Shown: positions 43,601 to 46,600 of the stretch, piece by piece | Numbering within the stretch: position 1 is the first letter of the stretch | How the letters are laid out: every line of letters starts with the position of its first letter | From: Tubiluchus corallicola | Lineage: Eukaryota > Animalia > Priapulida | Length of the DNA: 64,000 nucleotides | Assembly (NCBI GenBank): GCA_030141605.1 | Contig: JAQGDQ010000026.1 | Span: 558,001 to 622,000, forward strand | Reading direction: 5' to 3' | The notes under the pieces: model-generated | Told to the model about the DNA's origin: nothing | What the model saw: only the letters and a program-made list of their open reading frames with translations | Databases searched by the model: none | Translations under genes and position numbers: made by a program

Positions 43601-46600
43601 AAAAATAACATGCTAATTTAAAACTATACATGTTTACTATTATAATAAATATAGCCACGTGTTTCACCCATTTCACCTACCTGTAGTTACGTATTAAGTA
43701 AGACACTCTGAGTTCAGTTAAACTTTGACCAACAGCAACTGCGTGTGTGCATAGCAAAACTGTGAAAAGGCTTATTTTGATAGAATACTGCAAAAAACCT
43801 AACAAGATTGAAATCAAACTTCACGAGAAAATAACAAATACGACACCACTAATTATCTTTCTACTTTTAGATAAAAGACACAATTTCAACATGTATGATT
43901 CAAGCCACATAACGAATATGGAAACTTACGACCTGAACTCTGTCATGCATTATCAGACCCATGCATTTTCTAATAATGGCCAGCCAACCATCACTAGGAA
44001 GGGAGATCCAAATGCTGAATATTATCTTGGACAACCCCATGATGGAGGAGGCTTTACACAGAGAGATATTAATAAGCTAAACCAAATGTATTGTTAATAA
44101 ATTGCTGTACAGCAACAACAACAAAAACAGCAACAGCTTTATGATGAATACACTAATAAACTAAGAGAAGAAACATAAAAGTAAAAAGATACTAATAAGA
44201 TAAATGAAAAGGAATTTTGAATGACTCCTTAGTGTAAACGTATGGCAACAATGAACAAGCCAATAAGATATATAAATGCGACATACCATGTTCTAAGAAA
44301 CGGTAATAAACTAAAGAAAATTTTGATGCTAATTTGCTATTAGGTGTCATTGAAACTGTAATATGAAGTAAACTGGTTCACATTGAAATATACAAATAAG
44401 ATGATACAAGTGATGTGTAAAAATTGAGAAAAATTACTGTGCTAAATAACCAATGCAGTTAGATTGTTCAATAAAATCATTAAAAATTATGAAAGTTTAA
44501 ACAAAAAAGTAATAAAGTTCCTGATGAGAACAAGTGTTAGTTATTTGTTATAAATATGGTGTAAAATAATTCCCCTTTTGAAAACTTCACAGACTTACTT
44601 ACAGCTAAAAGGAAAATTTTATGGCAATTTTTTACCTCTATATTTTCAATAAACGCCGACTTTTTAATGCCAAAAATACAGCCAAACAGCCCAACACTTC
44701 ATCTTTCAGGATTTTAGATACATATAAAGTTTTAACTACATGCAAAGTTTCAAAATGCTAAAGCAGTCAAAAAAATTAAAATATAATAAGTGTAGTAAAT
44801 GTTACATATAACTTACAGCTTTGTCCTGGCTGATAAAAACCTCAAGGTTTTCACACCCCGTTTGCTCTATCCAGGCAGCTGCTGCTTCACGGGTCCCAAA
44901 AAATATTGCGAGTATCTTTGCATTTGCAGCAGTTATTTCAGGCTATGAAATAGTTATAATAGAAAAAATCCTTATTGTGTTAATGGGTAAAGTAAAAATG
45001 TCAATACACATACACGTATGCACGCACGCACACATACACACACACACACCTAACAATGATAAAAAATGCAAATTTATGAAGAAAGCAATAGTTTGAAATA
45101 AAATTTCAATGCATTGCAGTAACCTGCTTAAAATATACATTATTCGTGTTACATCAGTGAAGGTAAATGCAAGAAATATGTATACATATGTATACGTGCA
45201 TGCACCCTCACGCGATTTTTATTTACTAAAAATAAAGGCTGCTGTTTGTTTTAAAAGACCAGCAGTAATTTATATAAAATTAGAAACAATTTTGAATCCA
45301 TTACTTTTGCAGCAGTAAAGCATATATTTTTCAAAATTTTATTTCAACAGACAGGTTTCAAATCTAGTTTGTACTGTTATTTACAGAACTTTTTCTGTTT
45401 TATGCTACTTTGCCCTTCCACCAACATGATCAAGTGTTGACAGGTTCTGGCGGGATACAAGCGTAATAGCACGCGTTTTTTTATGAGACAGGAGATGTGG
45501 ATCCACACAGGTAGCATTCTTAATTCCCAAACAGTCAAAACATTTGTTGTTAAAGTGATACTATTGCCATTAAGTGAACCTTACTGTACTTCGCAAATTA
45601 TGATCTGGACAAATAAAAATCTCAACATTCTTGTGCAGCCCATGAGCATCTTATGCCTACAAGACTCATTTAAATGTTTTTAAGGCTAGAATAGTGTAAT
45701 TACCAGTTTGTGATATAACTCCTGCATGTGCATACGTCAAGGCACTCAGGCAAAGTGTCTCAGCAAAACGAGAATCACATGACTGTCTCTAACGATACTT
45801 GCTAATGAAGTCGTCTCTCCCGTCTTAACATTGAGTAATGACGCATCAACAGGTGCCCTATCACCAACACATATCGGAGGCACACTCTCTAAATTAGTAT
45901 TTACTCTCTTTTCAATGTTGAGAAGAAATGTATTCCAGTTGTCCTTAAAAAAAATAACACAATATTAACAAGACAAGAGAATGAAGAAAGCCACAAAAGC
46001 TCCTCTCTACTTCCCAAATTCTTGAAGTTCAAAGTCTATATTTTTTAAAACACAGAAGGTCTTTAAATATAATATTTCCACGACTAGTGTAAATTCAACA
46101 GCCTTACAAATAAAAAAGATTTGAATACAAAGATGAATACAAAAAGACTACATGATTTCGCACAGTGTGCATCAAAGTGGTTTTTTCTCCATTAAATAAT
46201 ATTCCCTAATGACGAAATTTAATTTGTTTAGCCTCAGCAGGTTCTGAAACATAATGTAAACTAAAGCATTCAGTGGTGTTTGGACATATGCATGTTACAA
46301 TGTTTCTACAAAGTCTTATTTGGATAAAAGAGGGGAATAATATCGGATAGTACCAAACAGTCATCATTTACTCGACCTGTTTCCTGGCAGACAAAATTTA
46401 CATTTTTTTGGAGTCAAATAATTAACACAAAACAAAAACAACAAAAAAGTATTCACAAAACTCAAATGCAATGTAAACTCTCATTTCATTTCACACTGTG
46501 TTGCATCTGTAATGAAATTCGAACGCAGATCTTTTAATCCAACATGAATCTTTTAATTATGCCTAACGTCAAACAAGTGAAAAAGGCATAATAAAACAAC

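Follow-up and report, generated by a model that had tools for sequence, protein, structure and literature searches.

Gene model at the locus

The minus strand of the window, by which we mean the whole 64-kb stretch of DNA analyzed here (about 35% GC and, by its look, animal nuclear genome), carries a gene of ten GT-AG exons that runs from 48213 to 25685 when both flanks are read (Table 1). The spliced frame is 903 nt long and holds 300 codons, and its only stops are TGA at 159, TGA at 162, and TAA at 301. All nine introns are GT-AG, and their phases agree. The original prediction had drawn attention to exon 5, with TGA codons numbered about 159 and 162, and had continued the frame through five more exons of a ten-exon model. 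We found the sequence of that exon and both TGA positions to be correct. The five downstream exons were phase compatible and bounded by GT and AG, four others preceded exon 5, and in the spliced frame both the ten-exon model and the codon numbers held.

Table 1. Positions of the candidate SelL gene, its elements, and two neighboring coding regions in the window
Feature	Position	Strand	Remarks
Exon 1, coding part	48114..48213	-	100 nt from the putative ATG; opens the N-terminal helical domain
Exon 2	47807..47885	-	79 nt; phase 1/2; colinear with P0003
Exon 3	47224..47277	-	54 nt; phase 2/2
Exon 4	46718..46763	-	46 nt; 0 gaps against P0003 with the short acceptor
Exon 5, U-V-P-U motif	45704..45943	-	240 nt; AG acceptor, GT donor; phase 0/0
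TGA codon 159, predicted Sec	45746..45748	-	first Cys column of CxxC homologs; W in P0109
TGA codon 162, predicted Sec	45737..45739	-	second Cys column of CxxC homologs; W in P0109
Exon 6	44817..44942	-	126 nt
Intron 6	30267..44816	-	14,550 nt; hosts three antisense astacin genes
Exon 7	30228..30266	-	39 nt
Exon 8	29106..29204	-	99 nt
Exon 9	27070..27177	-	108 nt; GGD...DRPS closes the thioredoxin-like fold
Exon 10, coding part (putative)	25685..25696	-	three codons and TAA stop, then 3' UTR
Eukaryotic SECIS	25505..25567	-	AUGA at 25559, unpaired AAA, GA at ~25516; helix I ~14 bp further
Candidate polyadenylation signal	25448..25462	-	three overlapping AATAAA hexamers
Ribonuclease T2, single open frame	52026-51184	-	Pfam E 6.5e-50; hydrophobic N-terminus
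Tandem CCCH zinc-finger protein, long exon	12330-11257	-	Pfam zf-CCCH E 8.5e-22

The first half of the model could be compared with a close relative, P0003 (a 1,083-nt contig), which is 78% identical to it without a gap over residues 6 to 158 (153 residues). Thus, junctions 1 to 4 and the short acceptor of exon 4 are supported in this relative. The gap-free alignment reaches into exon 1, from residue 6, and the start codon upstream of it is a putative one. A longer exon 4 acceptor at 46787, 24 nt further upstream, was set aside as less likely, because it adds 8 residues that P0003 does not have (8 gaps). Word-index searches with exon 5 and with P0003 matched only P0003. At the other end of the gene, the proposed exon 10 was picked on the quality of its acceptor and the SECIS element behind it and not on homology. 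A search of RNA runs with the 3' end returned five runs, four of them at 0.05 of words, and in all four (4/4) the 3' UTR and exon 10 were not covered; the words in common could stem from a CT repeat within the query, and the outcome speaks neither for nor against transcription. Long CT microsatellites lie at about 27030 to 26750 (intron 9) and 36570 to 36460 (intron 6), where they produce spurious Leu/Ser and Glu/Arg open reading frames.

On the plus strand, intron 6 contains three tandem multiexon genes for astacin (M12A) metalloproteases, antisense to the surrounding gene. Their zinc motif (HELMHAAGFYH) is found at 34884, 38434, and 43138 and their Met-turn (SVMHY) at 35294, 38838, and 43939. 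The copies are 72 to 92% identical in aligned blocks, and Pfam Astacin was above its cut-off in the four exon frames scanned, which came from copies 2 and 3. Transcriptional interference from these genes could, in a reading that we think unlikely, provide a selenium-independent control of expression of the host gene. Elsewhere in the window, the CCCH protein is one that we take, from its motifs, to be ZFP36/TIS11-like.

Two in-frame UGA codons and a SECIS element

In an alignment of 22 homologs, both TGA codons fell on the two Cys columns in every CxxC row (7/7). Because both sit exactly in these columns, the match is more than chance. This agrees with the earlier proposal that the two codons correspond to the Sec or Cys positions of SelL homologs and that both are recoded as Sec, which is further supported by a SECIS element that the original prediction did not mention. 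The element matches Rfam SECIS_1 on the strand of the gene at 35.8 bits (E 0.0019), which exceeds the gathering cut-off of 35 by only 0.8 bit, and this was the sole Rfam match in the 64-kb window. In the spliced model its AUGA lies 126 nt past the TAA stop and 542 nt past the second UGA.

The folding of the element depended on how much of it was considered. A 101-nt region that includes the long lower helix folded at -24.3 kcal/mol (z -2.81), and none of 200 shuffles was as good; the 63-nt core alone did not fold unusually well (z -1.12, with 25/200 shuffles as good). A custom SECIS pattern, designed after the element was known, recovered it alone when both strands of the window were searched and gave no match in 5,000 simulated UTRs. 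A second AUGA...AA hairpin nearer the stop, at about 25660 to 25625, was no better than shuffles (z 0.72), had no Rfam match, and was rejected. The 3' UTR thus holds a single eukaryotic SECIS. The AATAAA hexamers behind it form a putative polyadenylation signal, a hexamer that is common in this AT-rich DNA. The stem-loop directly after UGA162 is weak (-2.6 kcal/mol), and no tRNA gene was found in the 64 kb searched.

Every Trp in the gene model, as in the open reading frames of the RNase T2 and the CCCH protein, is encoded without TGA, and the standard code suffices for all of them. Judging from the sequence, it is very likely that both UGAs are read as selenocysteine, which would yield a protein of 300 residues. 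We infer that the gene is expressed, that Sec is inserted at both codons, and that the two residues form a diselenide.

Membership in the SelL family

Few natural proteins contain a diselenide bond, and SelL (SELENOL), known from fishes and from invertebrates of aquatic habitats, is among them; its primary paper is cited as Shchedrina et al. (2007, PNAS 104:13919). As far as excerpts of later papers go, the family occurs in five of six marine invertebrate genomes, namely, sponge, Trichoplax, Nematostella, Capitella, and amphioxus (PMC3473315, Table 1), in nearly all nontetrapod vertebrates (PMC13134290), in Ciona (PMC2874816), in algae (PMC7539508), and in marine microbes, which have a Prx-like family in common with eukaryotes (PMC2398784). 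The same kind of excerpts describe two Sec residues placed two residues apart with one SECIS for both (PMC3316567, PMC3541580) and a diselenide bond and a Prx-like motif (PMC13134290, PMC2397514).

The assignment of the gene to SelL, which had been made from the two UGAs and the Trx/AhpC-like sequence of the downstream exons, was borne out by a family model, by full-length matches to fish SelL-family proteins, and by the alignment to the Cys columns. Of the four exons that we scanned, three matched NCBIfam NF040769 ("SelL-related redox protein") and followed its order: exon 5 at positions 8 to 49 (E 3.1e-10), exon 6 at 53 to 86 (E 0.015), and exon 9 at 139 to 172 (E 2.2e-6). The whole-protein cut-off of this model, 120 bits, is unreachable by single exons. 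No other NCBIfam model was matched by the four exons, and exon 8 alone had no match in Pfam or NCBIfam. In Pfam, AhpC-TSA (exon 5) and AhpC-TSA_2 scored weakly, below their cut-offs. NF040769 is a prokaryotic model of 173 positions, and unlike the gene described here it has no N-terminal helical domain; the same is true of P0011 and P0119, both of which carry C-L-P-C.

A profile built from fish sequences only (22 rows, 306 positions) gave the full model 187 bits, with a match that spans profile positions 13 to 304. Residues 1 to 110 alone scored 32.9 bits against a best of 7.4 among 200 shuffles. Exons 3 to 9 were colinear on this profile, exons 3, 4, 7, and 8 only weakly so: exon 6 scored 18.8 bits, and exons 7 (positions 224 to 236) and 8 (positions 237 to 269) scored 5 bits each. 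Exons 1, 2, and 10 taken alone gave no significant score on it. The UniRef "Selenoprotein L" record P0103 matched model residues 25 to 293 with 28.5% identity over 270 columns. The clusters that rank highest in ESM Atlas for this N-terminal region bear the name Selenoprotein L (0.77), which we treat as a lead only.

Three exon borders could be recognized in fish gene models. Fish records P0077 and P0072 are without exactly the 18 residues of exon 3, P0118 is missing most of exon 4 up to the 3' border of the exon, and the fish isoform P0013 departs from the model where exon 6 meets exon 7. These comparisons, made on protein models rather than genomic DNA, suggest that intron positions are conserved between the gene and its fish homologs. 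In a tree of 26 rows, built without a SelU outgroup, the model paired with P0003 (100/100) and fell outside the fish clade (99/99), and the deeper forks were weak.

In common with SelL of fishes and aquatic invertebrates, the gene has two predicted Sec residues that take the place of CxxC and lie two residues apart, one SECIS in the 3' UTR, about 300 residues, and a peroxiredoxin-like thioredoxin fold (from the exon matches and the model of homolog P0062), and its homology to animal SelL runs the full length and includes the N-terminal helical domain. What is its own is the U-V-P-U motif and the 14.55-kb intron 6 with its antisense astacin genes. Identity to named fish and invertebrate records is 25 to 34%, no named relative among the matches exceeds about 34%, and we found no difference of kind. 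We therefore consider the locus to hold an intact ten-exon SELENOL gene with two in-frame UGAs that very likely encode Sec, a SECIS in the 3' UTR, and a predicted redox protein of 300 residues as its product (probability of roughly 0.93). It is a real SelL gene and a further member of a known family, one already reported from sponge to fish.

The homologs also showed how such genes fare in databases. When 1.84 billion representatives were searched with exon 5 by phmmer, 12 matches were obtained. Eight end exactly before codon 159; at the motif, two carry C-x-x-C and one carries W-x-x-W. The last, P0004, is the top library match (2055 aa, 32 stretches), a repeat artifact that we excluded from the census and the alignments. 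A profile search added 103 further matches, mostly from fish. We classified 116 fetched homologs by regular expression and counted 92 with CxxC, 11 that end before Sec159, 3 with WxxW, 2 with other endings, and 8 that the expression did not catch. The last were two prokaryote-type CxxC proteins and six fish models without the motif region, and both "Selenoprotein L" records derived from UniRef/UniProt are among fish models of this kind. An explicit U-x-x-U was found in none of the 116 fetched records, and for this reason the UxxU motif as a feature of SelL rests on the papers cited above.

The original prediction that standard gene callers would truncate or misannotate such a gene is seen to apply to its relatives. 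Records that end before Sec159 (11 of 116) include those of the clam Mactra and the sea urchin Strongylocentrotus, and this suggests the pattern expected of gene callers at conserved UGAs. Seven public fish models (P0085, P0102, P0103, P0111 to P0113, and P0118) are without the motif residues, with between 4 and about 25 residues missing; in the gar record, P0085, the missing residues are exactly the four of the motif. False introns around the UGAs are probably the cause of the loss in these seven. P0109 and P0007 have W-x-x-W at the motif, consistent with UGA having been read under a code in which it means Trp. The gene described here would probably be cut short or wrongly spliced by standard pipelines, as happened to those of the clam, the sea urchin, and several fishes. 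Its corrected model provides one more SelL of invertebrate type, complete with exon map and SECIS.

Predicted fold, function, and alternative readings

Structures were predicted for two homologs, P0062 and P0003, which stand in for the SelL protein. The model of P0062, a fish CxxC protein (76-row alignment), reached a pLDDT of 90.8 and a pTM of 0.88. It shows five helices within residues 9 to 114, followed by a thioredoxin-like domain in which the CxxC lies just past strand 155 to 160, at the start of helix 167 to 178. Its catalytic domain was closest among solved folds to human prostamide/prostaglandin F synthase (PGFS; PRXL2B, SelU-related; PDB 9us9 and 9usa; Foldseek E 4.3e-10) and to Bcp/PrxQ peroxiredoxins (Z 17.9 to 18.3); overall these folds gave a Z of about 18 and an rmsd of 2.2 to 2.8 A and covered model residues 123 to 310. 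In P0003 the N-terminal half models as helices, and a Foldseek search with the N-terminal half gave no match at E <= 0.001 in the PDB, only generic helical bundles. From these models we predict a helical bundle at about residues 1 to 110 and a peroxiredoxin-like thioredoxin fold at about 120 to 300, with U-V-P-U opening the active-site helix. No signal peptide is evident by eye.

Synthesis of this protein would start from the SECIS, to which SBP2 would bind to recruit eEFSec with Sec-tRNA, so that UGA159 and then, three codons on, UGA162 would be decoded. One SECIS would serve both codons, as described for SelL. At low selenium the ribosome would stop at 159. A stop well upstream of the last exon junction triggers nonsense-mediated decay. 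In the spliced model the last junction lies 405 nt past the second UGA, and because of this the mRNA would then be open to decay. Once made, the two Sec residues would form a diselenide, as reported for SelL.

As to function, we lean toward an intracellular low-potential oxidoreductase. Its diselenide would open to two selenols and close again, and the helical bundle would be the part that binds or docks partners. A more specific version is unlikely in our estimate: that the host belongs to an animal lineage with no prior report of SelL and that the N-terminal bundle recruits to the UxxU site either a substrate or a reductase dedicated to the diselenide. If that version were true, the compact ten-exon gene and the teleost CxxC paralog would together make a ready Sec2-versus-Cys2 test of the purpose of a protein diselenide. 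Our literature search found no paper that names a substrate or reductant of SelL. Clean members of the family help with that question, although one more leaves knowledge of the family unchanged.

One alternative keeps the gene and its recoding and differs in the function step only: instead of acting on protein disulfides as an oxidoreductase, the protein would reduce peroxides or endoperoxides in the manner of Bcp or PGFS, and the diselenide would be the oxidized intermediate. It fits the structural neighbors named above, and PGFS was also the only PDB sequence match to the profile (E 2.8e-6), with RxFxCxxC over the motif. However, a common fold proves no function, and PGFS and Bcp/PrxQ are Cys enzymes of 150 to 200 residues without the 110-residue helical domain. 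Diselenides are also, according to PMC2397514, difficult to reduce, and turnover would be limited as a result. We regard this reductase as possible, with odds clearly below even.

A second alternative is that the locus is a pseudogene, or that its product ends at the first TGA after 158 residues, with the downstream exons and the hairpin as relics. The homologs recorded as ending at that same residue (11/116) could be taken in this sense. However, they come from animals as unrelated as the clam and the sea urchin, which points instead to gene callers that stop at UGA. The short product would keep half a thioredoxin fold, and in the P0003 model, which has this end, the last block is poorly modeled (pLDDT 38). 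The gene itself has two stops exactly on two catalytic Cys columns, a frame of 300 codons that is otherwise open and free of frameshifts, nine canonical introns, and an intact SECIS. We therefore find decay or a short product very improbable, and an intact SELENOL gene remains the preferred reading.

Descent from a different family is just as hard to reconcile with the data. Instead of being a SelL ortholog, the gene could have arisen from selenoproteins of the SelU/PRXL2 type, or from AhpC-like ones of sponges, by acquisition of a second Sec, and PRXL2B/PGFS does have the same fold and the RxF motif; the tree, with no SelU outgroup and weak deep forks, would leave room for this. SelU/PRXL2 proteins (PRXL2A, PGFS, and AAED1) carry UxxC or CxxC at the motif. 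The gene has two TGAs there, against one Sec or a Cys-only motif, and differs from the roughly 200 residues without a SelL helical domain, a size compared with PGFS only, which aligns C-terminally only. The helical domain at its N terminus has matches in fish SelL-family proteins but no counterpart in PGFS, NF040769 was the sole NCBIfam match of the exons, three exon borders are as in fish, and the ESM Atlas lead points the same way. We give this origin very little weight. The idea that UGA means Trp or Cys throughout the host genome, with no selenium involved, has a negligible chance: three database relatives do have W-x-x-W at the motif, but the columns concerned are Cys columns, the gene caller's choice of code accounts best for these W, and against the idea stand the TGA-free Trp codons of three coding regions and the presence of a SECIS.

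A teleost CxxC paralog of SelL is widespread (P0019 to P0117) and variously labeled PRXL2C ("peroxiredoxin-like 2C"), PGFS-like ("prostamide/prostaglandin F synthase-like"), selenoprotein L, or uncharacterized; our limited literature search found no paper on it. Its members P0019, P0052, and P0062 are full-length homologs with both domains and 27 to 31% identity to the model, they lie inside the fish clade of the tree, and they have C-L-L-C where this gene has U-V-P-U. The paralog is thus a natural Cys control for the function of SelL.

Upstream of the gene, a short element at about 49190 to 48790 on the minus strand, between the RNase T2 gene and SelL, has similar ends and, by eye, a transposase-like fragment, and a reverse-transcriptase-like fragment lies further upstream at 54069 to 54443 on the plus strand. 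Neither frame had a Pfam match at E <= 0.01. The RNase T2 frame is on the same strand as SelL, about 3 kb upstream of its start. Acceptor-like sites are found just upstream of both start codons, and it is possible, from the sequence, that the two genes have a common or linked 5' leader.
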